Source: Amphiscolops sp. MND2022
Lineage: Eukaryota
Length of the DNA: 60,000 nt
Direction: 5' to 3'
NCBI GenBank assembly: GCA_964187785.1
Contig: OZ076409.1
Span: forward strand, 77,378,001 to 77,438,000
Part shown: piece after piece, positions 1 to 26,050 of the stretch
Numbering within the stretch: position 1 is the first letter of the stretch
Layout: every line of letters begins with the position of its first letter
Position numbers and translations under genes: made by a program
Notes under the pieces: generated by a model
Database searches by the model: none
What the model saw: only the letters and a program-made list of their open reading frames with translations
What the model was told of the DNA's origin: nothing

Positions 1-2280
1 ATCTGTTTGCAGACAATAGACCTAACCACTATGAACAAAATTCTCAAGATTAACAAAATTTACATTTTAACACTAACAATTATACTGAAGATGATAACAC
101 CGATCAGGAAAATACAACCCAACAACAAAATCAACCTGAAAACTATAACGATAATGAGTTTACTACCCAAGAATCTACAATTTCAACACATAATCCATCA
201 CAAACAGGGACATCAACATCAGTACATACTCAATCTTTTAGAGTTCCCACTAGAGTTGTAAACCAAAGACAAACTACACATAGTCCTCAATCTCACTTAG
301 CTACATCTCCAAACCGTAATATAACTTTTAACCTTCCACATACAGATGACACACACGATGAAACCCATGATACATTACAGGATGATATTCTGACTACATC
401 TAGTGCTCAGAATACTTCTGTTAATGTTGCATCTCCAAAAAGAACTAATCCTGATTATACAAGATACATCACTCGACCTAGATATGATCCTCCATCAATT
501 CCCTCCGCCTTTCGCTCAAACAGATCGACCTCTTCCAACAACAATTTTAATGATAATCCCCAAACTTCCAATCGATATAACGATCCATTTAATTATAACT
601 TTATCCTCTATCAAATACAACTAACAATACAAATACCAACCAACATCACTCTCAAATTAATACAACTTCAACAACACAAAACCCCTTCATACAATTATCA
701 AATACCAATACTTCACAGAATATATATTCTCAAAATCAAGGAACCTCGTATACTTCCACTTCTTATTCTAATATCACACAGGATTCTCAAAGAAGACTTC
801 ATAATCCTCCACTTACACATATACCAACTGATCCTCTGTATCAAATGCATCCAAATCCAAATCCTAACCTTAATCCTAATCCATTACCACCAAATACAAT
901 CCAACATATACCTCCTCAACTCACACAACAATTAGCCCCTCCACCCCAATATTTACAAATGCCACAAGATACCTTTATACACATGTCCGCTTCAATACCA
1001 GAACCTATGAAACCTTTTGATGGTTTGGACCATTCTTATACCCCTGAAGAATATCTACAACAAGTCGAAGCAAGATTAACCTTCGCCATAGGTGAAGAAC
1101 CTCAAAATAATCCTATAAAAAACAAATCTAGGCATAACAGACGCATGGCTTACATACAATGTTCATTAACAGGAACAGCTCTCGATTGGTACACTAACCT
1201 CCATATATCATATAAACAACAATGGAATTCTTTTGTACAATTATTCAAAAAACAATTCTCATCTCAAACCACTGCTTACTACGCACAAGTAGAATCTATG
1301 TCACTCATGAAAAAGGATAATGAAACGGTTCGCCATTTCGCCTTTAGAGTACAACAATTAGTTAAAAAGGGATGGTGTTATGAAAATGCAGCTACCATAA
1401 ATCTCAAAATAATGAAATCTTTACAAAAGGGTTACCAAAAAAGTTAAAAGATTTTGCCCATAAACGACAAATTAAACATGTATCAACATTACTTGAACCT
1501 TCAATACCATTTCACACACTTGTTAGACATGTCGATTCTGAAGATATTGCTAATCAAAAAATTAGAACTAACGACTTAGCTCTAGAAATAAACAAAGTAT
1601 CGCTTGAAGATGATACTAACAAAAAAGAATTTGAACATGAAGATCAGATAATGGTTACTCAATCTGGAGACCCAAATAACAAAAGCAAACCAGCGTATAG
1701 AAAATATTGTTCCTATTGTCACAAAAATAATCATAGTATTTCAATTTGTTATCAAAAACAACGTGATGACGAATACCAGAAATACAATAACCAAAGATCA
1801 CGAACTCCTCAACAATCCTTTGTACAATATTTTCGCAGTAAACCTAATAATCCTCAAGAAAATCGAAATGACAATACAAATCCTTAATCCTCAGATAATG
1901 ATCGTAATAAATATAATCAAAATCACTATAATGATAGATACAGAAACAATGATAGATATCGTAGCAATAGTAGAGAATATTCGCAAAACAACTATAGATC
2001 AAACTCTCGACAAAGATATTATAATCGATCCCGAAGTCCGTATAGATCTCGATTTGATAATTATTATCAAAGAAGAACTCCATCTAGATCTCCATATAGA
2101 TCTCCATACAGAAATAACTCAAATTACAGATATAATTCTCGCTCAAGATACAGATCTCGTTCTCAATCACAAGGAAACTCCTTTAAACGATATAATTATC
2201 CATATAGATCTCCATCAAGACCTAGAGATTTTAGATCAAGATCTAGAACACCCTCAAGAAACAGACAACAAAACAGAATA
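1..2280 (+). pseudogene. gag: gag: long Q/N/T/P-rich N-terminus, capsid-like domain, CCHC zinc knuckle, RS/Y-rich basic tail
   Basis: MKPFDGLD...EEYLQQVE...SLTGTALDWY...WNSFVQLFKKQF (retrotransposon gag-like, ORF 845-1447). Frameshift ~1410 resumes as NEIFTKGLPKKLKDF. CSYCHKNNHSISIC (CX2CX4HX4C) at ~1708-1749. In-frame TAA 1885-1887, then RSRSPYRSR...RTPSRSPYRSPY in the same frame as pol. Confidence 0.88.
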
Positions 2281-5200
2281 AATCAAGTAGACGTTAAATC
2301 TGCAAAAGAAAATGATAGTACAAAATTTGAAATCCACACCTGTCAATTAACTGAAATAGCTAATACAATCACTACTTATAGTTGGTTTTATCCACTATAT
2401 ATTCACGCTTCTGAAACAAATGATAACATATTACCTTCAAAATTAGAAATCTTATTCCTCTTAGATACTGGAGCATCCATATCTGTTTTGAATTTACCAA
2501 CATTTCATGTAATTTCCAAACAATTAAACATCAATGTTCCAACTAACCTCCAAAACAAAAGAGCCAAAACTTTTACAGTTGCAAACCAAACTGAAGTACC
2601 AATAATACATTATATTTCGATGACCTGTTTCACTGTAGTAAATCACAAAACACGATCCTTCATTATCGATTTCGCCGTAGCAAATATCAAGTTCAACATT
2701 CTTGGAACACCCTTTTTCAAAAAACACATCCAAATTATTGATTTTCAACAAAATATTATGACGTACATAGAACAACATCCAAAGCTTCCAACAAAAACAA
2801 CATTTTCCACATTTACAGAAAAAGATTACCCATATATTTCTTACATTTATACTTATAAATGTAAGGAACCAAATCACTTTAAACCAAGGTCAGGAAAAAC
2901 CATACATTTCCCAATTAAAAACTATTCAAATCTACATTTTGAACTTGAAGATAATACAAAATTCGATCCAACCAACCCATATACATACTTCTTACAAAAA
3001 TTCAAAAATATCTTTCATTTCTTAGATATGATAGTCAATGAAAAAAGCAAAGACTCTTGTGCAACCATAATTCAAAACTTTACATCTTACCCAGCTACAT
3101 TACCACGAGGAATTATTGGATATATAGAAATACCTATTACTCAAACAACTCCTCCTCACTACAGAGTTAACGATGTAAATTCACTTATTCACTCTGTAAT
3201 ACATGCGTATCACCCTGATACCACAACTCCGATTAAACAAAATCCTTATGTAGATATGAACTTATGTACTAGGGTAACACCACAATCCCTATTAGAAATT
3301 AACAAGATAGAAATCAACGACAAAACACTTCAACTTCCTATACCTTCTGTTACTGGAAACCTTCGACCCTCAAATAAAATTCGAAAGGATTTCCCTCCAT
3401 TACCCTATTCTACAGAAAATCAACAATTCATAAAGAAGTTCAATTTTGAATACTCAGATTTAACCGATACAGAATATGTAAACCTCTGCAATATTCTGAT
3501 TGATAACCAAAATTGTTACGCCAAACATAAGAACGACGTAGGAAAGATTTCTACTCCCTTCCGAATTAGAATAAAAGATAATTGTAAACTTCACACACAA
3601 AGACCTTCTAAAGTACCTATTCACTATAGAGATAGACTAAATAAACTTTTATTAGAACTTGAAAAATACAACATCATAAAACAAATTGGTTCAACAACAG
3701 ATGAAAAACATACTATTGGAACAACATTTTTAAACCCTTTAATTATTATCCCAAAAGGAGACGCAATAAAAGTTGTCTTAGACGCAAGACATCTAAACTC
3801 AGACACTAACCAAGAACTTGAATCTTGGCCTATTGAACCTTTAGCTCCTCAATTAGCTAGAGCCAATAAAAAATACAAATCAACTATTGATCTAATGTAT
3901 GCATATGCTCATACACCATTAGACGAAGAAACAATTAAACTTACAGGATTTTCATCCGGTGACAAATTATACGCCTTTATCCGTGCATTTTATGGATTAA
4001 AGGAACTTCCAAACTTTTTTACAAAACAAATGTCAACTTTCTTTAGATCGCTTATAGACGAACGTTCTGCGTTAGTTTATATCGATGATATTTTATTACT
4101 CACAAACGAAAAACAAGAAATGTTTGAACTTATAAAAGAATTCCATACAATAGCATCTCGAGAAAATCTCAAACTTGCACCTGAAAAATCATTCTACATG
4201 TTACTCAAAGTAAAATTCCTTGGACATGAAATTGGTAACAACACAATTAAACCAATTCCATCCAAAATTGAAGCCATTAAAAGAATTCCATCACCAAAAG
4301 AAAAGAAAGATGTTATGCAATTTCTTGGCAGTGTTAACTATTATTCAAAATTCATTGAAAAACTTCATATAAACCTTAAACCATTGTATACATTACTACA
4401 TGATGATGTTAAATTTCAATGGACACCTGAATTAGAAAAAATATTTCAAAATGTTAAAAATACAATGACAGCAAACACTGAATTAACAATACCCAACACC
4501 ACGCATCCATTTTCATAACAGTAGATGCTTCGTTAGTAGGTTTAGGCGCAGTCTTGTTCCAAATGAACGAAGAAAATAAGATGAAAGTAATCTCCTATAA
4601 CTCCAGAATTCTTAACACACAAGAACAAAAACTTTCAACTTTAGATAGAGAACTTCTTGCAATAGTTTACGCATTGCAAATATATGAATTTTTGATCATT
4701 GGATCTCCTCATCCTATATACCTCTTCACAGATCACAAGCCTTTACTACATTGTTTCGCAAAGAAAGGAAATCTTAGTCCTAGATTCTATAGAGCACAAA
4801 TGCAACTAACCAAATTCTCCAAACTAAAAATCATTCATACCCTTGGAAAAAATTTAACTGTAGCAGATATGCTTTCACGAACCCTTACAAAAGAACAGCT
4901 ACAAGTACACCAATTACGACACCAACAATTACCACCTCAAATAGATTTCTCTATCATGAAAGATAATCAACTCAAACCAGTACATTATTTAGTAAAACAT
5001 GAAAAAATAAAATATAATCAAAAGAATGATTGTCATTCTATCCTTGCTGACTACGGAGACGACCAATTCTCTATCCGTATAAATAACAAAGGAGAAGAAA
5101 TACACATAAAGCCTTTAGATTCCTTCTCTTTTCAATCTATTGTTCCATTCGAATCAAAATATAAAAAGCCTACAAAAAACCAAGCAAAATCTCTTTTACA

Positions 5201-7223
5201 ACAATCGACAATTCTTAATGATACTGACATTCTTAGTGATGACGATGAAATAACTCAATCAAATAATATCCAACAACAAAACTCAGACATAGTAAAAGAA
5301 CACACCCTTGCTATACAATATCCTACCAAATCCGACTATTGTAAACAACAAGTTCCATTTTTTGATCCATCCTTTTTCAAATACAAACAATATTTTAATT
5401 ACTTCTTCCTACCAGGAGATACACAATTAACCATTGAAACAATAAAAGCTCAACCAAACCAAGATACTGTTTTACAAAAGGTTTACGAATGGATACTTAA
5501 TAATGAAAGACCCTTACAAATAGACCCAACAATTGCAGCTAATTCTTTCTTATTAGTATATTACAAAATCTTCAACCAATTATATATTAATCATGATACA
5601 AAAATTATCCACAAAGTTTATCCTAATCTTCACGATTCCAACCCGAATCAAAGAGACAAAATATGTCTACCATTTAAACTTTTCCACGCAGCTTTTAACA
5701 AACTTCATGCTCATGGACATTCAGGAATAAAATTATCCATCAAAGCTTTCAACCAATTTTACTTCATACCGTACTTGAATAAATGGATGTCAATATTCAT
5801 CCATGATTGCATTGAATGCCAACAAAATAAACATATTAACCAAAAATTACAAACTGCATCTATACAAACCTTCTCAGAAAATGCTTCATATTTTAATTAC
5901 CGAATATCAATGGATACAAAAGGACCTATAAACCCACCATCAAATCAAAATTCATACATTCATGTTATAGTAGACGCTTTTAGTCACTTTGTAGTAACAG
6001 TACCTATAAAACAAAATAATGCTCAAAACGCTGCTAACTCATTACTACATCATTGGATAACAAAACTTGGACCTCCTGTATATCTAGTTACCGACCGTGG
6101 AACAGAATACATTAATTCAGAATTTGCAAATCTTTGTACCACAATGGGAATTAGACATTCACCAAGAACTCCTTATGCACCATGGACAAATGGTTTAGTT
6201 GAAAATCAAAACAGAAATCTTGGAACTCATCTCAGACTTTTCTTACATAACACTCCAGAAAATTGGTCAACTCAAGTTCATATGTATGCTTATGCACATA
6301 ATTCACAACCACTTTCTGAATTAAACTTATCTCCATATGAAATAGTATTCCATACTATACCCAGAATTCCAATCAACTTTGAACTCAATCTCCAAAGAGA
6401 TACATATAGAAATTGTACTTCTCAATATTGTCAAGAATTACCACTTCATACACACTATGACAAATCAAATCTAAACCCTTTCTTTCATAAAGTTTTATCT
6501 AAACCAATTCCACAATGGATCTTAGCTACTGAAACTGCTATGATACAGATATACCATACAGTATATGAAAACACAAAAAGAAAGATTAATTCCTATGCTT
6601 ATTTTAACAAAACATATCACAATCCAAGACCCTTAGATATTGGTACATTTGTACTAAAAAGAAACTTTCTCCATGTTCATTTTTCCGATAAATTAAAACC
6701 TCTCAGAATTGGCCCATTCAAAGTTATTAACAAAATCTCCGACATAACATATGAAATTGTTAATCAAGATGGTTATACATCGCACATACATAGAAATCAT
6801 TTAATTCCTTATCATCCAAAAGAACCAGTTATTTTTCCTTTCCTACAACAATATAATCCTCATTTATTTAATGACTGTCATTCAAATATAAACGATTAAA
6901 TAATTAACTCTGATGAAGACAAATTTACTGACGAAGAACAAATTCCTTCCACAACATCTAATGAAGAAACGGATATACCATTCACGATTGACTTACAACC
7001 AGAATCATTTAGCCAATATTCTTCATTTCCATATAAACAAAAAGAACAAATTCCTCAAAATACCTACCTGGGTAACCAATCAGATATTCATGACTATTAT
7101 AATTTTAATAATCCACGAAGACACTCCTATAATAGATACAATTTCCGCCCACAACCAAGAAAAGACTACCGACTTTTCCTTGGTGAAAACGATATAATTT
7201 CACTTTCTCAAAAATCCTGCTGA
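2281..7223 (+). pseudogene. pol: pol: aspartic protease, reverse transcriptase, RNase H, integrase
   Basis: FLLDTGAS (DTG 2464-2472); RT YIDD 4078-4089 and KVKFLGH; frameshift ~4513, then TVDASLVGLGAVLFQ...RELLAIV...TDHKPL...ADMLSR (RH); HAHGH...CIEC, SMDTKGP, VDAFS, TDRGTEY, NGLVENQN, GPF (IN). After TAA 6897-6899 the same frame runs on to TGA 7221-7223. Confidence 0.95.
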
Positions 7224-7385
7224 AATACGGAATACAGAAAAAAGCACACCAAGAAAATTTGAAAGAAAAGCAAAAGTTTGAAGCTTACTGTGAAACTGAA
7301 TGAAAAATATTTCACAAGTGATAATAAACGAAAGAAATCGATATGAAACTATAACTATTTTATAAATTGAGACAAATAACCTTAA

Positions 7386-8855
7386 CACAAAGATTTCAAA
7401 ATTGATAGACATATTCACTCGCCATCATCAACCACAAATAACTCTTCTTCTAGTTCAACACATTCACTCCAAAGATTACCTGAATATACAGCATATTTAA
7501 ACTCAGATACAGACATACTGGATTCCTCATCCTCAAATCCCAGTCCATCCGCTCCATATACTCTTGATAGAGTACCAACAACACCCACCAATACACCTAT
7601 AACCCAAACTCAAACATTAATATTAACAACTCAATCACAACCTATTTCACGAAATCTAACATTTGTAAAAACAAATTCACCACTTTCTGACTCTAATGAT
7701 GAAACACCTACAATACCAAATACACAAGATACTTCAAATATTTTAAATAGACCTCCTCTTCCACCGATTACTACCACTCGTTCTATTCATATCCCTGATC
7801 CTAGCTCAGTCCTACAATACATAAATTCTTGTCCACATAAAGTACCAACCGCAACGAAAACAAAAAGAAAAACTCCTTTACCTACATTACCACAAAATCT
7901 TGATTTACCATCATCAAGTAATACTCCAATAACACTTTTACCAGAACCTTCATTGAAATCACCAACAAAGAAAACACAACAACACCCAACTCCTTCACCA
8001 TCTGAACTAAGTTCATTCATATTTTCTCAAATATATCCCAAGCTTGAATTAAAACGTGTACATTCAACCACCACCTCTTCTTTAACAGATTTATATCATA
8101 AAGATAAAGATTCTGACTCAACTGCTAGTACTAGAGTACCAAGACATAATTATAACCTTCGATCTCAACAACAAAGAAATTCTCAAGAATTACAATCTTT
8201 AACTAGTTCAAGTACAAACTCAAGACTACTTCGACAGCACGCCCAACCCAGATTGGAAACTTCTTCTCTTTCCTCATCTCAACCCACTATACCATCTTCT
8301 CTATCACTACCATTTCAAATCACATCAGGATTTGAAACAGCTTCTCTTCTTTCTGAAGAGCCAGTAACTATATCAGATAGCGCAGCCAATTTTTCACGAG
8401 TTTACTCACCTAGTTCAATAACATCAAACTCTTCCATACAATTACCTGAATATTTTTTAGAAGATTTCTCAATACCTCCATCACCAAATCCTCACGAATA
8501 TCCTATTCGTGTTAATTCAAAAATTGTTCGCACGCTTAACGAAGATCCTCGATACACGGTCTTACCTGCAAGATTTATAAACAACAGTTCACTCTCAACT
8601 CAAAGAAAACAAAGAGAACTACGAAGATTACAAGAACAACAACTCACATTAAAATTTGAAGTAGAAGTCACATTCAACTCGCTAGGACCTCATCCATTCT
8701 CTCTGTCAACAAGAGTAGCACACAAAACAACCCCATCACCATTCATAGTCACATCCATTTCTTACCTTTGTGACGCAGATTTACCTGAGATTAGAACAGG
8801 ACATATAAACTTTTTTAATCCCTACTCCGGACTCAATTATAGATCAATATTTTAA
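7386..8855 (+). CDS. ORF2 of the retroelement: Ser/Thr/Pro-rich protein of unknown function with a possibly globular C-terminal ~110 aa
   Basis: The frame of ORF 7953-8855 is open back to a TAA at 7383-7385 (~490 codons, start codon not evident). Contains PSAP (7545-7556), YPKL (8034-8045) and HNYNLRS. It stops 2 nt before the env ATG. Confidence 0.7.
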   Translation, partial: HKDFKIDRHIHSPSSTTNNSSSSSTHSLQRLPEYTAYLNSDTDILDSSSSNPSPSAPYTLDRVPTTPTNTPITQTQTLILTTQSQPISRNLTFVKTNSPLSDSNDETPTIPNTQDTSNILNRPPLPPITTTRSIHIPDPSSVLQYINSCPHKVPTATKTKRKTPLPTLPQNLDLPSSSNTPITLLPEPSLKSPTKKTQQHPTPSPSELSSFIFSQIYPKLELKRVHSTTTSSLTDLYHKDKDSDSTASTRVPRHNYNLRSQQQRNSQELQSLTSSSTNSRLLRQHAQPRLETSSLSSSQPTIPSSLSLPFQITSGFETASLLSEEPVTISDSAANFSRVYSPSSITSNSSIQLPEYFLEDFSIPPSPNPHEYPIRVNSKIVRTLNEDPRYTVLPARFINNSSLSTQRKQRELRRLQEQQLTLKFEVEVTFNSLGPHPFSLSTRVAHKTTPSPFIVTSISYLCDADLPEIRTGHINFFNPYSGLNYRSIF

Positions 8856-8857
8856 CC

Positions 8858-11429
8858 ATGAACCAAACCACCTTTACCCTATATTTAATATACACAATAC
8901 AAGTTGTTAAATACACATATATAATACACATAGTCCACTCTTTAGTTCACCCTTCAACTGTTCCTAAAGTTGACACCACCAATTCTGAAAATCATATTTC
9001 AAACCAAGATCCTAACATTTTAAACTTGATGGTATCTCATTATGATTGTGCAAAACAAAACAACTTAAGACAATTCAGTTTATTAAATGTAGAACCATGT
9101 AAACAAGCACCCTCAGATATACAACACACAAACACCCAAGCAACAGTTTATGTTAGAGCAAAAGCTAAAAGAATATAAGCCTTTAAATGCGAAGCATATA
9201 TAAAGACTGAGAAAGTCTGGTGTTCACAAACATTCACATCTAGTAGACGATATGATCGTTCACAATGGGGACAAAACACATTAGAACTTCCAAAATTATT
9301 GGACCCTATTGAATGCAAAAAATATGATCAGATATTTAAACGCGACTGATAGCGAAGAACTAAACAACTACAATATACAAAGCTCTTTCTCATTGTTCGA
9401 CGATAGTAATTATCAAAACACAATTGAACGAATTCAGACACCATTTAGAGTAAAAAAATTGAATACATGGCATATTGGAACCTTCGTATTTGATGAAAAT
9501 TATCCTGACTGGATAGTTAATGTTACACAAAATACATACTCCAGATGTCGATCAGACCGAGAACATTTAATTACCCGACAAAGTCGGAAACTTAGAATTG
9601 TTAACACCGCAATAGTATATGACGACAAAAACAATCAATTAATACATGACGGACACATATTACCATGTTATCATTCAGACGGATTTTGTAAACCAACGAC
9701 CAAAACTCCATATACATTAACATGGTTTGATGAAAAATTTTGCCTCATATTTCAACTTCAAGAATTCCTTGGTAGAATGACACGAATCAAAGATAGATAC
9801 TGGATAGAAACCGATACCTTCATTGAAACTTCAAACATCACACAAAAACTTAAACCGAAGGAATACAAGGAACAAGATATCCTAATGTAAAAACACAACA
9901 ATCAAAAGTAGGCAATCCAAGCCTTTCTCGATTTGAAATATACCCAATTGCACAAACCTTCTGTGGAAAACCTGAACCATTATTTTCAACACAATATGAT
10001 GACATCTTTGTTACATATTTAGATGGTTTTGATATGAACACAGGATTACCAAAACCACACTCAATAATTGACCAAACAATTAGTGGAAATATAAAATATG
10101 ATGATTCAAACAAAAGGTATATATTCCCTGCATTAAATATATCAATCAATTTCGCCACTTTAGATTATGATGCCCACATTAATACAAAATTTGATTTCAC
10201 AATAAATCATGTATTTAAATCCATGACAGTACAAGAACTAAACACTCTTCATACAATATGTGAACTGGAAAGAACTCAACTATAAACGATCTTACCTGTC
10301 AGTTAAAAATCCTCAATTAGCCGGTTTTCTTTTAATTGGAAATCGTAGTAACTTTCTCTACGTTGAAGGATCTACAGCATGGCTGTATGATTGCCCTCAT
10401 TTTATATCACCACTATACAAGGCAGACAAATGCTTTGATAGAATTCCTATACACTACAGAGAAACGATAATGTATGTTGACCCAATAACAAGACAAACTT
10501 TTAACTATGCAACACCAATTGAATGGGGAAATAACCCACAAAATATAATAGAATTAGATCCAGATTCTAACGGAGATTTTTATGTGTTAACACCAGAACC
10601 ACTTAAACGAGAAGCACCACAAATGTTTAAACCTACCCAAATTAAAACAACAATCACTCCTAATACATTTACCGCCCAAGATGCCGGTATATACTCAAAT
10701 GCAGAATTAGATCATTTCTGGAATAGAGTACTATTTGCTAAACATTCTGACACAACTCTCCTATTACTTGGAAAATCATTAAGCTATGATTTCATCTCAA
10801 TGCATAATGATAAACACTCATACTCAGGACATAATCCCTATAATCATTTAAGGATTGGAGTACATGACCACTTGTTAAACCTTTTACCACTTTTTAACCC
10901 TGACTGGTTCAGTCAATCATTCATTAATTTCTTTGGATATCCATGTTTTGTTTTAACTCAATGTGGAATTTATTTTTCAACATTTCTTTTCATTAGAGAA
11001 GTTTTAACATTTTTACTCAAATTCTACAGAACAATTAGCATAAAATATAATCTCCAAAGCAACATTTCCATTTTGAGTTCAATAGCCCATGGATTTTTAA
11101 ATATAGTTACATCGGAAATGGTAACCGATTTAAACAATACAGGAAAACGAAAACGGATATATACTAAACACAAAATTACAACAAGTGAAAATGATACTAT
11201 CCTATTGCCGGAAAAAGAACTAAACAATAAACGAAGACACTCTGATACTGACTTCCCTTATTTACCTCCTAAATATTCCAGTAAGAATTCAACATTTCAA
11301 TCACCGCAAAAGACACACCCAACTAATGTAAACGATATTAATTCTCAGGACTATGACCCAATAATGTCAAATGTAATAGCTGTACCGGAAAGTCCTGCTA
11401 AAGTCTTTACAAAATTCAATCCCTCCTAG
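8858..11429 (+). pseudogene. env: env: viral fusion glycoprotein resembling chuvirus G / herpesvirus gB-type (class III) proteins
   Basis: Hydrophobic N-terminus; HYDC...FSLLNVEPC; LHTICELERTQLLTILA...NPQLAGFLL; WLYDCP; CFDRIPIHY...YVDPITR...PIECG; AGIYSNAELD; C-terminal hydrophobic TM and basic tail. These motifs match my recollection of chuvirus-like glycoproteins. Disrupted by TAA 9176 and frameshifts ~9320, ~9850, ~10297. Confidence 0.8.
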
Positions 11430-11585
11430 CTGAAAAACAATAACTTAAAATACAAATTAACCTCAGAAAAAGTTCAAAAAATTATCAACTAAATTCTTCT
11501 CGGTATTAACTTTCATTCAAACCCAAATTCTCACTCGGACCGGTCTCTCCTTTTCAACTCAACAACAAATTCACTTGCCCACCAC

Positions 11586-13466
11586 CGCAATAGATTATGA
11601 CGACAAAAACAATCAATTAATACATGACGGACACATATTACCATGTTATCATTCAGACGGATTTTGTACCAACGACCAAAACTCCATATACATTAACATG
11701 GTTTGATGAAAAATTTTGCATTTTGTAACCAACGACCAAAACTCCATATACATTAACATGGTTTGATGAAAAATTTTGCCTCATATTTCAACTTCAAGAA
11801 TTCCTTGGTAGAATGACACGAATCAAAGATAGATACTGGATAGAAACCGATACCTTCATTGAAACTTCAAACATCACACAAAAACTTCAAACCGAAGGAA
11901 TACAAGGAACAAGATATCCTAATGTAAAAACACCACAATCAAAAGTAGGCAATCCAAGCCTTTCTCGATTTGAAATATACCCAATTGCACAAACCTTCTG
12001 TGGAAAACCTGAACCATTATTTTCAACACAATATGATGACATCTTTGTTACATATTTAGATGGTTTTGATATGAACACAGGATTACCAAAACCACACTCA
12101 ATAATTGACCAAACAATTAGTGGAAATATAAAATATGATGATTCAAACAAAAGGTATATATTCCCTGCATTAAATATATCAATCAATTTCGCCACTTTAG
12201 ATTATGATGCCCACATTAATACAAAATTTGATTTCACAATAAATCATGTATTTAAATCCATGACAGTACAAGAACTAAACACTCTTCATACAATATGTGA
12301 ACTGGAAAGAACTCAACTATTAACGATCTTAGCTGTCAGTTAAAAATCCTCAATTAGCCGGTTTTCTTTTAATTGGAAATCGTAGTAACTTTCTCTACGT
12401 TGAAGGATCTACAGCATGGCTGTATGATTGCCCTCATTTTATATCACCACTATACAAGGCAGACAAATGCTTTGATAGAATTCCTATACACTACAGAGAA
12501 ACGATAATGTATGTTGACCCAATAACAAGACAAACTTTTAACTATGCAACACCAATTGAATGGGGAAATAACCCACAAAATATAATAGAATTAGATCCAG
12601 ATTCTAACGGAGATTTTTATGTGTTAACACCAGAACCACTTAAACGAGAAGCACCACAAATGTTTAAACCTACCCAAATTAAAACAACAATCACTCCTAA
12701 TACATTCACCGCCCAAGATGCCGGTATATACTCAAATGCAGAATTAGATCATTTCTGGAATAGAGTACTATTTGCTAAACATTCTGACACAACTCTCCTA
12801 TTACTTGGAAAATCATTAAGCTATGATTTCATCTCAATGCATAATGATAAACACTCATACTCAGGACATAATCCCTATAATCATTTAAGGATTGGAGTAC
12901 ATGACCACTTGTTAAACCTTTTACCACTTTTTAACCCTGACTGGTTCAGTCAAGCATTCATTAATTTCTTTGGATATCCATGTTTTGTTTTAACTCAATG
13001 TGGAATTTATTTTTCAACATTTCTTTTCATTAGAGAAGTTTTAACATTTTTACTCAAATTCTACAGAACAATTAGCATAAAATATAATCTCCAAAGCAAC
13101 ATTTCCATTTTGAGTTCAATAGCCCATGGATTTTTAAATATAGTTACATCGGAAATGGTAACCGATTTAAACAATACAGGAAAACGAAAACGGATATATA
13201 CTAAACACAAAATTACAACAAGTGAAAACGATACTATCCTATTGCCGGAAAAAGAACTAAACAATAAACGAAGACACTCTGATACTGACTTCCCTTATTT
13301 ACCTCCTAAATATTCCAGTAAGAATTCAACATTTCAATCACCGCAAAAGACACACCCAACTAATGTAAACGATATTAATTCTCAGGACTATGACCCAATA
13401 ATGTCAAATGTAATAGCTGTACCGGAAAGTCCTGCTAAAGTCTTTACAAAATTCAATCCCTCCTAG
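11586..13466 (+). pseudogene. env: 5'-truncated env copy 2
   Basis: ORFs 11813-12343 and 12507-13466 repeat env copy 1; internal ~59-bp duplication at 11661-11779. Confidence 0.9.
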
Positions 13467-13622
13467 CTGAAAAACAATAACTTAAAATACAAATTAACCT
13501 CAGAAAAAGTTCAAAAAATTATCAACTAAATTCTTCTCGGTATTAACTTTCATTCAAACCCAAATTCTCACTCGGACCGGTCTCTCCTTTTCAACTCAAC
13601 AACAAATTCACTTGCCCACCAC

Positions 13623-15445
13623 CGCAATAGATTATGACGACAAAAACAATCAATTAATACATGACGGACACATATTACCATGTTATCATTCAGACGGATT
13701 TTGTAAACCAACGACCAAAACTCCATATACATTAACATGGTTTGATGAAAAATTTTGCCTCATATTTCAACTTCAAGAATTCATTGGTAGAATGACACGA
13801 ATCAAAGATAGATACTGGATAGAAACCGATACCTTCATTGAAACTTCAAACATCACACAAAAACTTCAAACCGAAGGAATACAAGGAACAAGATATCCTA
13901 ATGTAAAAACACCACAATCAAAAGTAGGCAATCCAAGCCTTTCTCGATTTGAAATATACCCAATTGCACAAACCTTCTGTGGAAAACCTGAACCATTATT
14001 TTCAACACAATATGATGACATCTTTGTTACATATTTAGATGGTTTTGATATGAACACAGGATTACCAAAACCACACTCAATAATTGACCAAACAATTAGT
14101 GGAAATATAAAATATGATGATTCAAACAAAAGGTATATATTCCCTGCATTGAATATATCAATCAATTTCGCCACTTTAGATTATGATGCCCACATTAATA
14201 CAAAATTTGATTTCACAATAAATCATGTATTTAAATCCATGACAGTACAAGAACTAAACACTCTTCATACAATATGTGAACTGGAAAGAACTCAACTATT
14301 AACGATCTTAGCTGTCAGTTAAAAATCCTCAATTAGCCGGTTTTCTTTTAATTGGAAATCGTAGTAACTTTCTCTACGTTGAAGGATCTACAGCATGGCT
14401 GTATGATTGCCCTCATTTTATATCACCACTATACAAGGCAGACAAATGCTTTGATAGAATTCCTATACACTACAGAGAAACGATAATGTATGTTGACCCA
14501 ATAACAAGACAAACTTTTAACTATGCAACACCAATTGAATGTGGAAATAACCCACAAAATATAATAGAATTAGATCCAGATTCTAACGGAGATTTTTATG
14601 TGTTAACACCAGAACCACTTAAACGAGAAGCACCACAAATGTTTAAACCTACCCAAATTAAAACAACAATCACTCCTAATACATTTACCGCCCAAGATGC
14701 CGGTTTTTACTCAAATGCAGAATTAGATCAATTCTGGAATAGAGTACTATTTGCTAAACATTCTGACACAACTCTCCTATTACTTGGAAAATCATTAAGC
14801 TATGATTTCATCTCAATGCATAATGATAAACACTCATACTCAGGACATAATCCCTATAATCATTTAAGGATTGGAGTACATGACCACTTGTTAAACCTTT
14901 TACCACTTTTTAACCCTGACTGGTTCAGTCAAGCATTCATTAATTTCTTTGGATATCCATGTTATGTTTTAACTCAATGTGGAATTTATTTTTCAACATT
15001 TCTTTTCATTAGAGAAGTTTTAACATTTTTACTCAAATTCTACAGAACAATTAGCATAAAATATAATCTCCAAAGCAACATTTCCATTTTGAGTTCAATA
15101 GCCCATGGATTTTTAAATATAGTTACATCGGAAATGGTAACCGATTTAAACAATACAGGAAAACGAAAACGGATATATACTAAACACAAAATTACAACAA
15201 GTGAAAATGATAATATCCTATTGCCGGAAAAAGAACTAAACAATAAACGAAGACACTCTGATACTGACTTCCCTTATTTACCTCCTAAATATTCCAGTAA
15301 GAATTCAACATTTCAATCACCGCAAAAGACACACCCAACTAATGTAAACGATATTAATTCTCAGGACTATGACCCAATAATGTCAAATGTAATAGCTGTA
15401 CCGGAAAGTCCTGCTAAAGTCTTTACAAAATTCAATCCCTCCTAG
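13623..15445 (+). pseudogene. env: 5'-truncated env copy 3
   Basis: ORFs 13612-14322 and 14486-15445 repeat env copy 1; retains PIECG cysteine. Confidence 0.9.
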
Positions 15446-15790
15446 CTGAAAAACAATAACTTAAAATACAAATTAACCTCAGAAAAAGTTCAAAAAATTA
15501 TCAACTAAATTCTTCTTGGTATTAACTTTCATTCAAACCCAAATTCTCACTCGGACCGGTCTCTCCTTTTCAACTCAACAACAAATTCACTTGCCCACCA
15601 CAACTCAACTCTCAACCAGAAGACTTCAACCGGATTTTCAGTCCATCTAAAAGACGGAAATCACAGAAGTTTCTATTCCTGGAATAGATGCCACTGTGAT
15701 TGTTGATGTTTTAAACCCATCATTGACTCAGTATTCCCATATTGTAAGTACAATTTAAACTTTAATTTTACCAAACAATTTAATGGATAA
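15380..15790 (+). pseudogene. Possible accessory ORF A, or extended env tail, with Cys/His cluster
   Basis: Env frame continues MSNVIAVPESP...PS*LKNN...HLKDGNHRSFYSWNRCHCDC*CFKP...YC to TAA 15788-15790, with three in-frame stops. Confidence 0.35.
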
Positions 15791-15886
15791 AAAAGATATA
15801 ACGAAATTTTTCCTTATTATTAGAAATAATATAATCAAACGTTATAATCATTATTTTAGCTCTACAAAAACACGCAAGTTTAAATA

Positions 15887-17178
15887 ATGGAATCCTTGCC
15901 CGAAATTGATGTAGTTAACTCTAATCCCTCTGAATTGCTTGCATCCCCTTTGAATATAACTATTCAACAAAATGTTAACGAAGATAATAACTCTTCCTCC
16001 AACTCTCAAGACCCCATAGAAACTATTCCTATTGAACAAGTAGATCATGTTAACGCAAGATCTCAAAAAAGAAAGTACCCAGATATAACTGCAGACAAAC
16101 CTTTTATGGAATCTGGCGCTTGCCCTCCTTTCATAAAACCAATTAAACAAGATGAAGATAGAGATTGTGAATTAGTTCCTATTCTCTCGTCAAAACACTT
16201 CACCTTTCAATCTCAGTTAACTTCGTTATACATGATTCCAACAAAATACAAATTCATCATCAGAGAATTTAAAAATGATTATCATACATCAATTGCATCA
16301 AAATTGATTTCCCCATATGATTGGTGGTTAAACAATAAAGTGAAAATTTTCTCACTCCAATAAAACTTCCTCAGACCATCTCCATATGATCTTCGAACCG
16401 AAGAAAATGATGCAATTTTTTTGCCATACCAAATCAAAAAGGCTCACCACATGACTTATCAAAAGTTTCTTCAAAATAAAGAGCCCGATAATTATATATT
16501 CTTCAACTCCAAATATACATCGTCATTTACTTTCAACTCAGAATATTTAATAGATCATACCAAAACAAAAGGAAAAATTAGAAATTATGACCCGCTGAAA
16601 CAAAGTTTTCTCTTCCTTCCAAATGATAACCCAAAAAGACCAATCATTGTACCACAAGAATACCTCTTTCTGAACGACGATTCGTTACTACAAGAAGATA
16701 TACCTCAACATATATCTGATCCTCTTCCTCCACTTCAACATATAGCCTCTCAACCTTTGAGACTGTGAAAAATCTTATTTTCACGCAATGACCAAAAAGG
16801 GATATTCGAATAAGGAATTAATTTTCATTATTTCGCATCTGCTTTCACTTCTTACAAATGGAAATCACAAAGAATATAAAAAAGGCAAAACAAGAATCGC
16901 CTAAGAAAACCAAAAATGATATCCCCAACCACAAAGTTTTCGCCCAACAGACGAATTACAGAAATATACAGAAATTCTGAATATCATAAAACCGTATCAT
17001 TATCCGAACCGAGATATTCTTATAACAATCGCTGAAATCGTAAATACCCTTGAACAAGCTCGAAGCATAATACAAAATATCGTATTTGATACGACAAGAA
17101 TTAGCCAATCAGATTTGTGCATTCGCACATCTTTAGACGAATTCAACTACACTATTGAAAAAATGCATCGATCTTAAC
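15887..17178 (+). pseudogene. Accessory ORF B of the retroelement, unknown function
   Basis: ORFs 15887-16363 and 16421-16768 are in the same frame, separated by one TAA. Coding-like sequence continues with lesions to roughly 17180; 3' end approximate. Confidence 0.6.
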
Positions 17179-17509
17179 TGGTAATTATGGGATAATCACT
17201 CTAAAATTGTTAACACTTACCACTTAATCTCTTAACAACCTGTCAAAATTGATTGAGTCTACACGTATATGCCTGGTATGAACAATTATAATACATGCTT
17301 GATGTTAAAATACTCTTTTAAAATAAAATAACAACAAATTTCAATCGCGACATAAAAATTTTCAACAAAATTGCTCCTCCTTTTAATGGACCGATTTCAA
17401 CAAATAAGTACTTATATGAAAGATATTTAAATACCCTTCAAGCTTCCAAAATACAACAACTTAATACTTAAAATTAAAAAGTTATAACATCACAAAATTC
17501 AATAAAAAA

Positions 17510-18163
17510 ATGTCAACTACGAAATTCTATTTTCAAAGGAACTTTATTGTAAACAAACTAATCTATTGTAGGTGAATATCGTCACAACTGCTTCTTCAGC
17601 ATTCCTTCCTTCTCTCAGGTCACCCATTCAAGAAGAATTCCGAAGTATCCTCTACAGCTTTCAACGAAATTTTCTCATTCTTCAATATGACAACTATCCA
17701 CTCTGGCGACATTGACTGCCCGATAGCTCCTTTCCTTTCAATCTCTTCAGCTCGATTGCGATCCTTGATCCTGAAAAAGCATTTAACGACATTAAATGCG
17801 CAGCTTCGAACAGAAAAAAAGGCTGACCCACATCTTACAAGGATGATATTGCTTAATATGTTCCAATTATTCCAAATAACAAGAATAAATTTCGACCAAT
17901 ATCTCCATATTCATAAACATCCTGACACTTATTCAACTCAAAAGGATGCCACTACCCAAACGGAACATACTACAATCAAACCCAAACGTTTACTACGAAC
18001 CCTATCCAATAGAATGCGTTCCGAAATGGAAAAACTACGTCTAAATTCATATTGGCCCTCAGATGACAATGATGACACTGACGAAGACCTTCAAAAAGAT
18101 CCCCCAGAAGCACTTTTAGACGATAACTACCCACACAAAACATATACTTACGTTTCCTTCTAA
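17510..18163 (+). pseudogene. Accessory ORF C of the retroelement, unknown function, acidic C-terminus
   Basis: ORF 17687-18163 extends in frame to ATG 17510 across one TGA; ends SDDNDDTDEDL...YVSF. Confidence 0.6.
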
Positions 18164-18709
18164 CATCCACAGACGCCACCAACAGCACCCGTCAACTCCC
18201 ATCTTCGAAATCCACATCTTCAACGAGCAACAGATCAGCACCCATCTTCAACTTCATCGCCGCCCAACAGTTGCCCATCTTCATTCATCTGCTGACCCTT
18301 CTTCATCCATCTTCCAATCTTCAATCGTCACCCATCCAATTCTCAGCCGAAGATGATCGATAATTAATAATAAAGAAAACTCAAAGAAAATACATTGTGC
18401 ATGATAACATTTCGAAAAGTTTCAAACTCATCTAATATTTAAAGAATTCAAACTCTTATCGAAAATATTCACTATGTAGTTATTATTTCAAATTTCATTC
18501 CCACCCACACTTATTTGCCCAAAAATCCTTTATTCACACCCGTACCGATATTTATTTGCTTTATTTTTAAAGAATAATTAGTAATAATTATTATTTTTCT
18601 GTGCTATCCCATCCAAAAAATTAACAAATATTATCAACAAATCTTTTCAAATTTCAACAAAACCAGCTCAAAATTAAATCCAGCACATTGTTCAAATCTA
18701 ATTCGAATA

Positions 18710-19129
18710 ATGACAAACCCAAATTCTCGACGTTTTCAACATTTGTTACATAACAAACCCGCCAAAGTTAATCACAACTTGAAATCTTTTCAGACAAATT
18801 TCACGCTCGATGGAAAAATTTTCTCTTCTCAACGATATTATTTCAATGACTCTTTGACCTTTAACTCGTATGATGTTTGCTCACGTTTGTTCAATGCGAA
18901 GTTCTTTCAAAAACTTTAACAGAAGCATAAAATTGAGCATCTACCAGTTCAAAAAACAAGCCGACGAAAGCATAGTGAAAAAGAACACTTTGACGCTTTT
19001 TGAACTGTAGTCGCACCTACGAGGTGTCAATCAAAATTTTGACAATTCGAGGTACACCAATGAGTCGAACTTACACCACTCTTAACGAGACTTATGCCAA
19101 TCATCCATCTAATGAAAAATGTTAACTAG
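18710..19129 (+). pseudogene. Possible accessory ORF D of the retroelement
   Basis: ORF 18710-18919 continues in frame to TAG 19127-19129 through TAA 18917 and TGA 19001, 19040, 19061. Confidence 0.4.
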
Positions 19130-19208
19130 CCGAAACGCTAAGAACATTTAAACAAAAAATTTTTCTTCATTTCAATTAATGATGCTACTTTAAAATTTTA
19201 TTTTATTT

Positions 19209-19223
19209 AAAAACCGGGATGGA
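19209..19223 (+). promoter_or_regulatory. Polypurine tract (imperfect) of the giant element
   Basis: AAAAACCGGGATGGA directly abuts the TGT start of the LTR. Confidence 0.6.
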
Positions 19224-19492
19224 TGTACTGACCTACATTAATAACCAATAGTATTTAGATGTTTATAGAATGTTCTAGAATGTACATTTATTTGTTATTG
19301 AATGATTGTAAATCTCTACTCCCTCAGAGAGAGAAAACTAACAATCAGTATTCAGTTGACTTCCTTTTTGTTCTGCTTCTAACACCTCGAACTAGTTGTA
19401 ATAAAGTAAGCTAGCTAGCCTGTCTCTCCGCCGCTTTTAGTAGTTGTGAATAAGACCATCCAAAGAAGTAACCAACCATTAAAAGCAGCACA
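19224..19492 (+). repeat. 3' LTR of the giant element (~269 bp)
   Basis: Starts TGTACTG and ends CAGCACA (6/7 inverted match); AATAAA at 19400-19405; base composition changes here. The 5' LTR is not available for confirmation. Confidence 0.75.
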
Positions 19493-19840
19493 CTACCCGG
19501 GTCGTTAAAGTAACCCTGTTTGAGATGACCTTTAAAACCAGACCATTAAAACAGATGTTATTCAATAAGACACAAAATTGAACGAATGTTACCGTCTTGA
19601 ACGAATTTTTAGTCAAAATTACACATCTCATTTTTTGTAAGAATTTTTTACGGGAAAATGCAAGTTTTGAAGAAATTCTATCAGAATCTTTTCGACATTG
19701 TAAGAAATGTTCGACATCGTAACAAGATTGCAAAATTTGCGATTCTTGTACGTACTTGTAAGATTCTTGTAAGAAATGCAAAGTTGGCAAGAAATTCGGA
19801 AGAATTTTGCAAGATTTGTGACTCTTGTAACCTAGGGAGC
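19493..19840. repeat. MITE-like repeat with internal (TTGC/TTGT)AAGA(A)TT motifs
   Basis: Reiterated ttgtaaga/ttgcaaga/ttcttg motifs at 19635-19830; weakly complementary ends CTACCCGGG...CCTAGGGAG. Confidence 0.35.
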
Positions 19841-20198: not shown

Positions 20199-20773
20199 TT
20201 AATCGTTCAACTTCTTGTATCTTCCTAGAATGCTCTTTCTAACTTGATGACAGCCAAGAGTGTACTGCTTCGGTCCGAGAAAATGGCTACATGACTTTTT
20301 CTCCCCATTCATTGAGCATTTCTTCTTGGATTTATTAGGGAAGAATACCTGCACGTCTTCCACTGGTTTTTTGGCTCTACAGGTGGTTCCAAAGCACTTG
20401 CAAAAGCAGCAGCAAAAATTTTGTTTCATCTTTCTTCGAAACATGCGTTTTAGTTCAATTTGGATAATCATGCAGTCTGCGTTTTCTTCAATCGATCGAA
20501 CATCGCCGATGGCCAAACCAACAAGCAGGTTCATTAGAATGAGAGTGGTTAATGTACTTGTGATAAACCATTGAAAAACATAGCCAAAAAGTACTTCTGA
20601 GTCCTCAGTTAGTGGTTTTCCATCTGCAGTCAAGCGGGATGTGTCGATGTATCCATACATTGCACTTAGGACATAGAAAACGCTCGTGAAGAAACGATTC
20701 ATCTGCTCCCATCCAATGTTTCCTCGAAGCGGAGACCAAGTCAAACACTTTTCTTTCAATTCAGAAGAGTCAT
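20199..20773 (-). CDS. TRPA-like cation channel, last coding exon (pore loop, S6, C-terminus)
   Basis: ILMNLLVGLAIGDVRSIEENA is the TRPA-type S6/TRP-like helix. Acceptor TTTTTAG|AT at 20773 is phase-compatible with the upstream donor; stop at 20199. Confidence 0.85.
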
Positions 20774-22228
20774 CTAAAAACATTTTTTAACGTAATTACG
20801 AAATTTTTCTACATCTTATTGAAAACTGCCGAATTTAGATTTTTTCGACCATTTAGGTGTAATTTTGAGGCTCTTTTCTAACGTGAAACTGCAATTGACC
20901 TTCAAAAAAAGCCTGCTGCATACCGCTTTTGTTTGCTGTTGAAAGTGTTCATACGTCTAACTAGGGAAGCATTTCAAAAAAGTGCATCAAAACGTGAAAA
21001 TGGGATTTTTTTCAATTCCGATTCATCAGGGTCATTTTGAAGTATCTTGAAGCGAAACACCGCCACTCTCTCACAAGAAACGCATACTGCATAAATAATT
21101 TGTTCGTTTTTGAAAGTTTTAAACTTTCTTATCCATTAAATCTACACAAATTGCATGAAAAATGAAAAACGACATGAATTGAAAAGTTTTGAGATTTCGA
21201 GTGAAATTGAAGCATATTTCTAATAGAAAACTAGCATTTTTTTTCCTACATTTTCATCAAAAAGTTCCTTTTATCTCTTCAAAAGCTAACTGGACATCAA
21301 ATTCGAAAGTTGATGAGAAGGTGTGAAGTCTCGATTCATGAAAACGTTCCACATTTTACAAAATTTTAGCTACAAAAATCAGAAATTGTAAAATTATTTG
21401 TTTTTTTCACTACTTTGGGATGATTTTGAGACTTGTTTTGCAAAATGAAACAGCATTTGACTTTCAAAAGGGCTACTCTATCACGCGTTCGTTTGATGTT
21501 GAGTTTTTTCAATCTTCTAACGAACGAATTTTTCTGAAACTTGCAAAAATCATTTTTCGGAAAAGTTTTGGATTTTGACACTTTTGAGACTTTCTGAGAT
21601 TTAATTCTGCCTACAAAGCTACAAAGTTGTCCTTTAGAAAACGTACTCGGCTTTTTCCGGGGCAACTTGAAATTTTTCTTGAAAACGCTTCAAAAATCTC
21701 ACAATTTGCACAAAAACGTTTAAACAGTTAAATTTTTCTATTTTCCGACTCATTTGGGTCATTTTGTTTTGTTGATGCAAAACACTATACTGTCCTTTCC
21801 AAAGAGTATACTACATTGCTACTTTGTTCATCTTTCAACGTTTTAAAATTCGATGCCCACCAAATATTTTCGGTGTTAAGTTGGGACATAACTCTGTCAA
21901 AAGTAACTTTTATCTTCTCAATAAGCCTTCAGGACAAAAGTTCATTTGTTCTTGAAAGGTGTCAAAGTTGAAATCCACGAAAACGTTAGAAGTTTTTCGT
22001 ATATTGCTTTGAAGAATTAAGTTCAAAGAACTTTTGTCTTTTTAGTCAGCGCCTTTTTCCTCAAGGAAAAAAGCCCGACTATTACAGTGGGTAATTTTTG
22101 TTCAGCTGACAATCTCACTTTGAACGGTCCAATTTTCTTACAATTCTTTCAATATTACAATTTCTTACAATTCTTACTTAGCTTACGAAGTAGAATTTTT
22201 ACATCATAGAATTACATAAGAAACTGAA

Positions 22229-25034: not shown

Positions 25035-25573
25035 CAGCAAGGATTTCAACGTTTGAAGATGTAATCTCTTTCTGTCTCAGAGCCAAACCATTTGCCGCTA
25101 GGGCGAGAATCAGCAGTACCACTGGAAGTGTAGTCTTCATCAAAGTTTTGAGGACTGCTGTTGCAAGGAGAATGTATTTTCCACAGTACATATTACTGGA
25201 CAACGATTCAAGTAAATTTAAAAGAAGAGCTAGCATCAAATTGGACATGGCGACCCCTTCTTCATCAAAGAATGATCCAGTGATCCAGTGAAAGACAAAA
25301 CTTCCGACAACAAATAATTGCAGCCAAAACTCTTTGACATGATTTTTGTACAGACAAAGCATCTTCGGCAACTCCAGAACCGAATGAATCAAAAAGAGTA
25401 GAAGAAAATAGAATAATGCGATTCCGAAATCCTGCTGCCAAGGTGCGTCGGCTTCGATAAAAGTAACTACGCCGTTACACATCACTGTAACTTCTCCGTT
25501 GAATACTCCTGATATTTGAAGCACTAGACTGGCAATCATCAGAAGAAGTTTCAACAAAGCCATTTTCCAATTT
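25035..25573 (-). CDS. TRPA-like channel exon (transmembrane segments S1-S5)
   Basis: Five hydrophobic stretches including GKYILLATAVLKTLMK...LLILALA. Acceptor TTTTTTAG|A at 25573 and donor G|GTTAGT at 25035; phases fit both neighbours. Confidence 0.85.
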
Positions 25574-26050
25574 CTAAAAAAGATATTTCACAAGCAGCAT
25601 TGGGGCAATTGCTGAGTCTAAACTGCCTAAAGTGCCACCGTATTCCCTTACAAGATTTTCATACTTGGGCTCCGACTAGTAACTTTTATTGTCTCTCGAA
25701 ACTGTGATGGATCCCAAATTAACAACAACATAGATGCAGTTTTTGTGACTCTGCAAGATGGTTAACAATGTTCATGTAATCATTGCGCAAGCTCTCTGAA
25801 AGTACCGTGATGCTTTGAGACCCTTTTTTTGGTTGGGAATTTTCACGCATGAATTATATTTTTGCCTCATTTTTTGTTAAATTGACGTCAAATTGACGAT
25901 GCTGTCTTTGGAGTATCACATTAATATTGGAGGAAGCTAACAAAACACCCTCTGAGAGACAAAAAACTATTTTGAACTAAGATACGGGGTCGGTGCACCG
26001 TTTTAATCGAATATACTATCAAAAAATGGTATGAAGTTTGAACAACTTAC

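Follow-up and report, generated by a model that had tools for sequence, protein, structure and literature searches.

Structure of the element

The window analyzed here, the whole 60,000-nt stretch OZ076409.1:77378001-77438000 (G000:C1) of the 1.07-Gb genome of Amphiscolops sp. MND2022, begins within a long terminal repeat (LTR) element that occupies positions 1-19492 in the sense orientation. As the first-pass annotation of this DNA proposed, this is one element that ends at 19492, where the polypurine tract (PPT) and the 3' LTR are found and a strong C-over-G skew stops (at 19.5 kb). The beginning of the element was located in the upstream stretch: the 5' LTR (L011:6617-6885) lies 2,884 bases upstream of window base 1. 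The two LTRs are 269 bp each, have TG..CA ends, differ at 3 of 269 positions (98.9% identity) and are flanked by the same target site duplication (TSD), CTAC. The primer binding site (PBS) starts with TGG, 3 nt after the 5' LTR (L011:6889), and is followed by an AUG-poor leader of 1.8 kb. The copy is 22,376 bp long or, without a 4.0-kb amplification in env, ~18.4 kb, the standard length in its family (hereafter family A) and well in line with the predicted size of over 15 kb.

The element carries gag-pol, ORF2, env, ORF4 and ORF5 (Table 1), of which ORF2 and ORF5 are open in the window copy, and gag-pol, env and ORF4 are interrupted. Because of these interruptions, the first-pass annotation arrived at five to seven ORFs downstream of the integrase (IN); the true count is four, the frames 15884-16363, 16364-16768 and ~16755-17177 being pieces of a single 430-aa ORF4, and the multiple env frames being pieces and repeats of one 856-aa gene. 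A 113-aa frame (18578-18919, ORF6) was rejected as non-coding: the ratio of nonsynonymous to synonymous differences per site (pN/pS) is 0.60-1.67 in 4/4 measurable comparisons, and there are frameshifting indels.

Nine of the 40 scored family A copies were fetched in addition to the window copy. All nine are largely collinear with it at 94-98% identity, although three contain internal duplications or insertions of their own. Both LTRs were within the stretch taken in six copies, each with a 4-bp TSD; since two of these share flanks, they represent five insertions. The two copies in question (L012/L013 and L014/L015) are 230 kb apart in opposite orientations, with identical flanks and TSD, and are a segmental duplication of one insertion. 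The frame is open in three of the nine copies for ORF2 (unmatched in the scanned stretch of one copy), two for env, four for ORF4 and eight for ORF5. The window element is a decayed member of a large Ty3/Gypsy LTR retrotransposon clade whose 18-kb elements have a "complex" gene set.

Table 1. Features of the element in window coordinates
Feature	Position	Strand	Comment
gag-pol	1..7223	+	family ORF ~2,670 aa, starting 804 bases before the window
IN C-tail YNFR	7137..7148	+	
ORF2	7518..8855	+	445 aa from invariant CTG, open here
PSAP in ORF2	7545..7556	+	
IYPKL in ORF2	8031..8045	+	
YNLRS in ORF2	8151..8165	+	
env	8858..11429	+	class III, 856 aa in family, broken here
env 3' tandem triplication	9605..15601	+	three units, private to window copy
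env cytoplasmic-tail PPxY	11265..11276	+	
Candidate 3' splice site for ORF4	ends 15859	+	
ORF4	15887..17177	+	430 aa in family, broken here
Candidate 3' splice site for ORF5	ends 17618	+	
ORF5	17687..18163	+	158 aa from Met, open here
PPT	19209..19223	+	
3' LTR	19224..19492	+	followed by TSD CTAC (19493-19496)

Gag-Pol and classification

The gag-pol gene, broken by frame changes and stops in the window but a single ORF in the natural open frames of other copies, encodes a long low-complexity N-terminus, capsid, one CCHC knuckle, an RS-rich tract, protease (PR), reverse transcriptase (RT), RNase H, as well as IN, the latter with H2C2, core and SH3-like parts and a C-terminal tail. The order PR-RT-RNase H-IN is supported by Pfam in the window frames and in one natural open frame of sister family H (the protease models are below the cut-off in the family H frame; a DTG motif is present in the window), and the RNase H matches only Gypsy-type models. 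The best solved relatives of the RT are 4ol8 (E-value 1.8e-26), which we take to be Ty3 RT, and Ty3 Gag-Pol (1.8e-25), compared to 2.8e-15 for foamy virus Pol; for the IN region, the values are 3.8e-25 for Ty3 and 1.8e-14 for the next relative. In a tree of 47 rows (128 candidates, 110 of them long enough, thinned to 47) that was built without named reference elements, the window Pol falls inside a 33-row clade with 100/100 support. The LTR ends, 4-bp TSD, PBS, PPT, domain order and RT/IN affinity are all those of Ty3/Gypsy elements (Metaviridae). The element thus belongs to Ty3/Gypsy and, operationally, is a gB-type errantivirus.

Several other assignments were rejected. Membership in Retroviridae (complex or foamy) disagrees with the RT and IN, which are closer to Ty3 than to foamy virus, MLV or HTLV; an insect errantivirus env type (gypsy, ZAM) disagrees with the class III env, which is not of the baculovirus F-type class I; and Troyka, with CG..CG ends and 3-bp TSD, differs from the TG..CA ends and 4-bp TSD found here. 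Anakin is a BEL/Pao element with a chuvirus glycoprotein (PMC7642597; also PMC12440569 and PMC13524379). Its env presumably belongs to the same group as the window env, but the Anakin pol is of the BEL/Pao type, whereas here the Pfam set is Gypsy-type and the best relative is Ty3.

At the end of Gag (window ~1700-2290), the CCHC knuckle is followed by an RS-dipeptide tract with 24-28 RS/SR in 6/6 frames, reminiscent of SR proteins or the tails of hepadnavirus core proteins. The PBS of the window copy matches the 3' end of the host tRNA-Met, the candidate primer, over 9 contiguous nt (12/18 in total; 18/18 in the distant family F). All nine PBS examined across the families have TGGTGCGAC in common and diverge afterwards, and the host tRNA-Met(CAT) and one tRNA-Val(TAC) both terminate in GGTCGCA (loci L117 and L121), so that the families may have switched primers. 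Most of the long 5' leaders are depleted of AUG (observed/expected: A 7/24, H 8/26, B 4/12, D 4/13, E 2/11.5), the exception being family C (8 vs 8.8 expected).

Sister families and selection

Searching the host genome with env homologs (at ~98, 83-87, 64, 54 and 28% identity), we identified families B, C, C3, D, G and H, whose gene order is that of A (17.7-18.8 kb for the B, C and D copies with both LTRs seen), and two more distant families, E and F. Six other families or subfamilies, related to that of the window, thus have this gene set, so it is no chance mosaic. The LTR pairs of B, C, D and E are 99.4-100% identical among the copies listed, which are the best-scoring ones and hence biased to the young. 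First-look searches, which do not provide copy counts, yielded 2,301 candidates for the 3' end of the family and 8,872-12,552 for env in the host genome; among the best env matches, again biased to the best-scoring, 49/50 in family B and 48/50 in family D lack a stop.

Between A and B, C or D, the identity is 34-40% for ORF2 and 34-41% for ORF4; ORF5 of A barely aligns with those of B and D (E-value 0.06) and does not align with that of C, suggesting that the ORF5 slot is kept while its content turns over. The ratios of nonsynonymous to synonymous substitution rates (dN/dS) for the B/D and C/C3 pairs, respectively, are 0.12 and 0.09 for IN, 0.12 and 0.07 for env (overall range 0.07-0.19), and 0.15 and 0.06 for ORF4; the values are 0.19 for ORF2 (B/D only) and 0.28 for ORF5 (C/C3; B/D is saturated). 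In comparisons with five G and H copies, the in-frame pN/pS ranges from 0.21 to 0.40 in ORF2, from 0.12 to 0.24 in env, from 0.11 to 0.24 in ORF4 and from 0.18 to 0.46 in ORF5 counted from its Met (other frames: 0.9-3.7). These ratios indicate that the four post-pol genes, ORF2, env, ORF4 and ORF5, are real and under purifying selection, and that the three accessory ORFs among them are kept by such selection across families. The first-pass annotation had proposed an env-bearing Ty3/Gypsy lineage with an accessory gene set of its own, and this holds across the six sister families, albeit with three accessory genes rather than up to five; the post-pol ORFs, whose absence from other copies would have spoken for a chance mosaic, are present in the copies collected. 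The element is more aptly seen as belonging to an LTR retrotransposon clade in current expansion than as a virus that was once endogenized.

The distant families differ in layout. Family E (L054-L059) is simpler and 12.2 kb long, with gag and pol in different frames, env immediately downstream of pol without ORF2, and a 524-aa coiled-coil ORF after env. In family F (L061:5916-7067, L064:6035-7081), env is followed by an ORF with a coiled coil and a TRAF/MATH domain (PF21355, E-value 9e-23), in which no RING or zinc-finger domain was detected; it looks like a captured host signaling gene that could act as a dominant negative.

Env

As originally proposed, env encodes a class III (gB/chuvirus-type) fusion glycoprotein; the fold is confirmed, and the protein, 856-858 aa in open copies, falls in PF24664 (Monjiviricetes_fusion). 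Cysteines and a membrane segment are conserved, and the cytoplasmic tail contains PPxY in 4/4 families with the full gene order that were compared (A, B, C, D) and in neither E nor F. Env relatives (P0072, P0076) and Pol matches were also found outside the host genome, P0072 being ~50% identical to host sequences at best; hence the lineage in the wider sense extends beyond this host.

In the window copy, the 3' part of env plus ~160 nt is present in three tandem units (9605-11585, 11583-13622 and 13620-15601) that are 97-99% alike, differing by 0.8-2.4%, with a 4-nt CACC microhomology at the joints. The triplication is absent from 9/9 other family A copies, one of which (L028/L029) is rearranged in another way in its env-ORF4 region. 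All three units share one frame break, suggesting that the triplication arose after the gene was broken; it is very probably a neutral accident in an already defective copy.

Expression of ORF2 and env

ORF2 is Met-free in 8/8 open frames. In 10/10 aligned rows, its conserved part opens with an in-frame CTG that has A at -3 and G at +4. CTG is a rare codon here, accounting for 1-2 of the ~40-60 Leu codons per ORF2 in nine rows (the tenth is frameshifted), and the opening CTG is the only identical-codon column among the 10 invariant Leu columns (A, G, B, D, C); among all 53 invariant columns with 4- or 6-fold degenerate codons in ORF2, just two have an identical codon. The stretch from the CTG to the env AUG contains 0-3 AUGs where 6.5-11.5 would be expected, and the out-of-frame AUGs in ORF2 total 18 against 38.2 under synonymous shuffling; env, ORF4 and pol show no such depletion.

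Considering the lack of Met, the invariant CTG in a strong context and the AUG depletion up to env, ORF2 and env are probably made from one subgenomic mRNA that starts after pol and is subject to leaky scanning. A minority of the ribosomes would initiate at the conserved CUG, producing ORF2, and the rest would scan across the AUG-poor ORF2 to the env AUG. The mRNA itself could come from splicing or from an internal promoter, as in some groups of Oikopleura Tor elements, where the env mRNA originates from a promoter in or after pol (PMC4402516). Rice tungro bacilliform virus (RTBV), in which a non-AUG start and AUG-free ORFs over ~900 nt let scanning reach the next gene, resembles this arrangement in its working only, being a plant caulimovirid that uses the pregenomic RNA for this, with an AUU start and no env (PMC5902531). 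YAG acceptor-like sites precede ORF2 in A, G, C and C3; such sites are also found at a constant position ahead of ORF4 (A, G and H) and of ORF5 (B/D and C/C3). ORF4 and ORF5 would probably be made from their own 3' mRNAs.

ORF2 as a putative adaptor

ORF2 consists of a disordered S/T/P-rich part followed by a conserved C-terminal domain of ~120 aa. Across the ten rows, PSAP is retained in eight, and (L/I)YPxL and YNLR in all ten; the region that holds them has 41 invariant positions out of 310. PSAP and YPxnL are absent from the four Gag regions tested, two of which contain PPxY. In retroviral budding, PT/SAP binds TSG101 and YPXnL binds ALIX (PMC12789967); YNLRS of lamin A binds the acidic patch of H2A-H2B (PMC12527912), and GGYNLRPR begins the chromatin-binding peptide of foamy virus Gag (PMC12125541, PMC6042332). 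When window ORF2 residues 196-230 were modeled with host H2A/H2B, the complex scored 0.75 (run agreement of at least 71%, partner pLDDT of at least 55), compared to 0.21 for the best control, and YNLRS was placed on the acidic-patch residues named for lamin A; the score measures likeness to solved complexes, not binding, and in the calibration 51 of 78 solved pairs attained the respective mark, as did 2 of 108 mismatched ones. Binding of the ORF2 YNLR to the acidic patch seems somewhat more likely than not.

PSAP, LYPxL and YNLR in ORF2, together with PPxY in the env tails, point to a p6/p12-like adaptor for budding and nucleosome tethering. The likeliest role of ORF2, although we give it no more than even odds, is that of retroviral p6/p12 or matrix encoded by a gene of its own, separated from Gag and linked to the synthesis of Env. 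In such a scheme, PSAP and LYPxL would recruit TSG101 and ALIX alongside the Env-tail PPxY, capsids would bud with Env only while the ORF2/env mRNA is on, and YNLR would tether incoming cores to chromatin, with a similar motif in the integrase tail as a backup. We lean slightly towards two modes of propagation, intracellular retrotransposition from gag-pol alone and Env-mediated spread from cell to cell toward germline or stem cells.

The integrase C-tails of the window copy and of families B, C and D end in a YNLR/YNFR-type motif, and such a tail may be a general nucleosome tether of Gypsy integrases; a literature search by titles and the beginnings of abstracts retrieved no paper on this subject.

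ORF4 and ORF5

The conserved core of ORF4 (approximately aa 60-325) includes a small beta-barrel predicted at 229-260; the protein also has a KRKY basic patch and a helical C-terminus. ORF5 evolves fast yet under purifying selection. No assignable relatives of either protein were found. By analogy to CERV, our best guess, held with less than even confidence, is a nuclear function of both in expression, RNA export or anti-silencing.

Alternative explanations

Taken together, the most plausible explanation appears to be a "complex" Ty3/Gypsy element with leaky-scanned ORF2 and env, ORF2 as a budding and tethering adaptor, and two modes of propagation; by analogy, it would work like a complex retrovirus. 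Several observations weigh against this interpretation. The element is known here from genome sequence alone, the ten ORF2 rows are related and amount to ~5 independent lineages, and the AUG depletion is weak in single families (p = 0.14 for B, 0.20 for D and 0.43 for C). PSAP is missing in family C, and late domain-like motifs arise easily in a region this rich in proline; the calibration of the complex test covers neither peptides nor disordered partners; YxLR occurs in the last 200 aa of 8/30 other Pol proteins, so the motif is not special to this clade. The predicted env model is of low confidence (pLDDT 51), and the nuclear role of ORF4 and ORF5 draws solely on the analogy to the CERV protein of Cer1. 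Finally, the ~44 codons that precede the CTG are open in A, G and H and look conserved at the amino acid level, which fits an upstream start or a spliced exon.

These upstream codons, along with the YAG sites before ORF2, also speak for an alternative in which ORF2 is the last exon of a spliced regulator with an upstream AUG exon, acts only in the nucleus, on chromatin or RNA export, and carries late domain-like motifs by chance. Cer1 CERV, which shares gag exons, sets a precedent (PMC10309623), and a nuclear role agrees with both the YNLR motif and the modeled complex. Yet an exon leaves unexplained the invariant rare CTG in a strong context, the complete lack of Met and the out-of-frame AUG depletion, and we consider this scenario unlikely. 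No strong splice donor is common to the B, C and D leaders, which counts against both this scenario and ours, and pyrimidine-rich acceptors before ORF2 were listed in only 5/9 rows. It is more doubtful still that the element is a purely intracellular retrotransposon whose env and accessory genes serve assembly, defense suppression or host benefit, without spread between cells. A simple scan of env detected no furin-like site and only weak hydrophobic segments, and transmission outside Drosophila is stated to be unknown (PMC13524379); but, for a selfish element present in many copies, the low dN/dS of env, the conservation of its cysteines and membrane segment and the tail PPxY in all four families speak against this reading, as do the stop-free best env matches. 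A chance mosaic, nested insertion or assembly artifact, which the private triplication and the frequent nested insertions and rearrangements among the fetched copies might bring to mind, is refuted as the origin of the layout by the matching LTRs and TSD, the collinear copies, the purifying selection and a gene order that persists in sister families whose ORF4 is as little as 34-41% identical, and the repeat units are not identical to one another; we regard it as extremely improbable.

A bolder version of the favored complex-element explanation, to which we assign a distinctly lower probability, portrays these elements as undescribed, enveloped "complex metaviruses" that are still spreading and make up much of the host genome, in which Gag's budding and chromatin-tethering functions would reside on a separate CUG-initiated gene translated with env by leaky scanning, a single subgenomic mRNA would switch the element from copying inside the cell to infectious spread, ORF4 and ORF5 would represent new regulator families, and sister lineages would swap in host genes such as the RING-less TRAF.

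Comparison with known elements

The notion in the first-pass annotation that only insect errantiviruses add an env is outdated: Gypsy elements with a gB-type env are widespread in invertebrates (Chary and Hayashi, PMC13524379). These "ancient errantiviruses" with an HSV/gB-type env likewise combine a Ty3/Gypsy pol and a gB-like class III env in multicopy elements with LTRs and PBS, but are described with gag, pol and env only, under a filter that admits regions up to 10 kb in which pol and env are no more than 1 kb apart. Here, a three-ORF layout with env within 1 kb of pol was not found: pol stops at 7223 and env starts at 8858, a 1.6-kb gap that accommodates ORF2, and two genes follow env. 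The word "accessory" is absent from the main text of that study, and the window PBS from its element table.

Giant Gypsy elements with env-like homology, accessory ORFs and thousands of copies are known from planarians (Burro/GYPSM1; PMC6431247). Identity with Burro was rejected: it exceeds 30 kb and encodes env and extra domains in frame within a single ~4,900-aa polyprotein, between gag and pol, in contrast to the 18.4-kb element with 269-bp LTRs described here, where env and the accessory genes are separate ORFs after pol. A MATH/TRAF domain occurs both in Burro and in family F. The same review mentions that ORFs are occasionally captured, either between pol and env or downstream of env, and rotifer elements capture varied third ORFs (PMC5408684). 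Cer1 is likewise an invertebrate LTR element with a dedicated regulatory protein produced from a subgenomic mRNA, but CERV, as described, is one protein spliced from gag exons (PMC10309623). The tunicate Tor elements, placed among Ty3/Gypsy in PMC13524379, are env-bearing LTR elements as well; the available text of PMC4402516 describes neither accessory ORFs nor a non-AUG upstream ORF in them. The PSAP, YPXnL and PPxY late domains and the YNLR arginine anchor are shared with retroviral p6/p12, the chromatin-binding sequence of foamy Gag and lamin A (PMC12789967, PMC12125541, PMC6042332, PMC12527912), but the retroviral motifs lie within Gag, whereas here they are on a separate, env-adjacent protein and on the Env tail.

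Publications thus exist on gB-type env Gypsy elements, on giant accessory-bearing Gypsy elements (Burro) and on a regulator in a Gypsy element (Cer1 CERV); what is new is the Met-less ORF2 that opens at an invariant CTG in a strong context, is AUG-depleted up to env and carries PSAP, LYPxL and YNLR. The literature searched, which did not extend to repeat databases and subscription papers, contained no description of the five-ORF order, of an LTR retrotransposon with a CUG-started pre-env ORF or of late domains encoded by an ORF of this kind.

Genomic surroundings

The element is inserted ~700 bp beyond the last exon of a probable host membrane-channel gene on the minus strand (exons at 20199-20786, 25030-25587 and 26770-27231), which we presume to be TRP-like; the individual exons had no Pfam match. 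Four tandem ~1.66-kb copies at 37500-45600, with a FLYWCH zinc-finger frame (PF04500) and inverted 16-bp subrepeats, are presumably the remnant of a MULE-type DNA transposon. The frames 49891-50436 (minus strand, starting MSTTRSQKRR) and 54532-55032 (plus strand, starting MLSTRRQKAK), without Pfam matches above the cut-off, are possibly Gag N-termini of other retroelements, although this is a guess. Elsewhere in the genome (L086-L115), large tandem arrays contain tRNA-Lys(TTT)-like and tRNA-Arg(TCT) copies, many with altered anticodons.

Implications

The lineage described here is a major component of the host genome, and the size filters of PMC13524379 would miss elements of this kind. How gB-type env Gypsy elements leave and enter cells is stated to be unknown (PMC13524379), and the clade offers a testable list of parts: a fusogen, a co-translated adaptor with two types of late domains, a third late domain on the Env tail, and a nucleosome anchor of the foamy virus/lamin type. 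If it works in the way proposed, the clade would be an independent origin of the complex-retrovirus organization outside Retroviridae.

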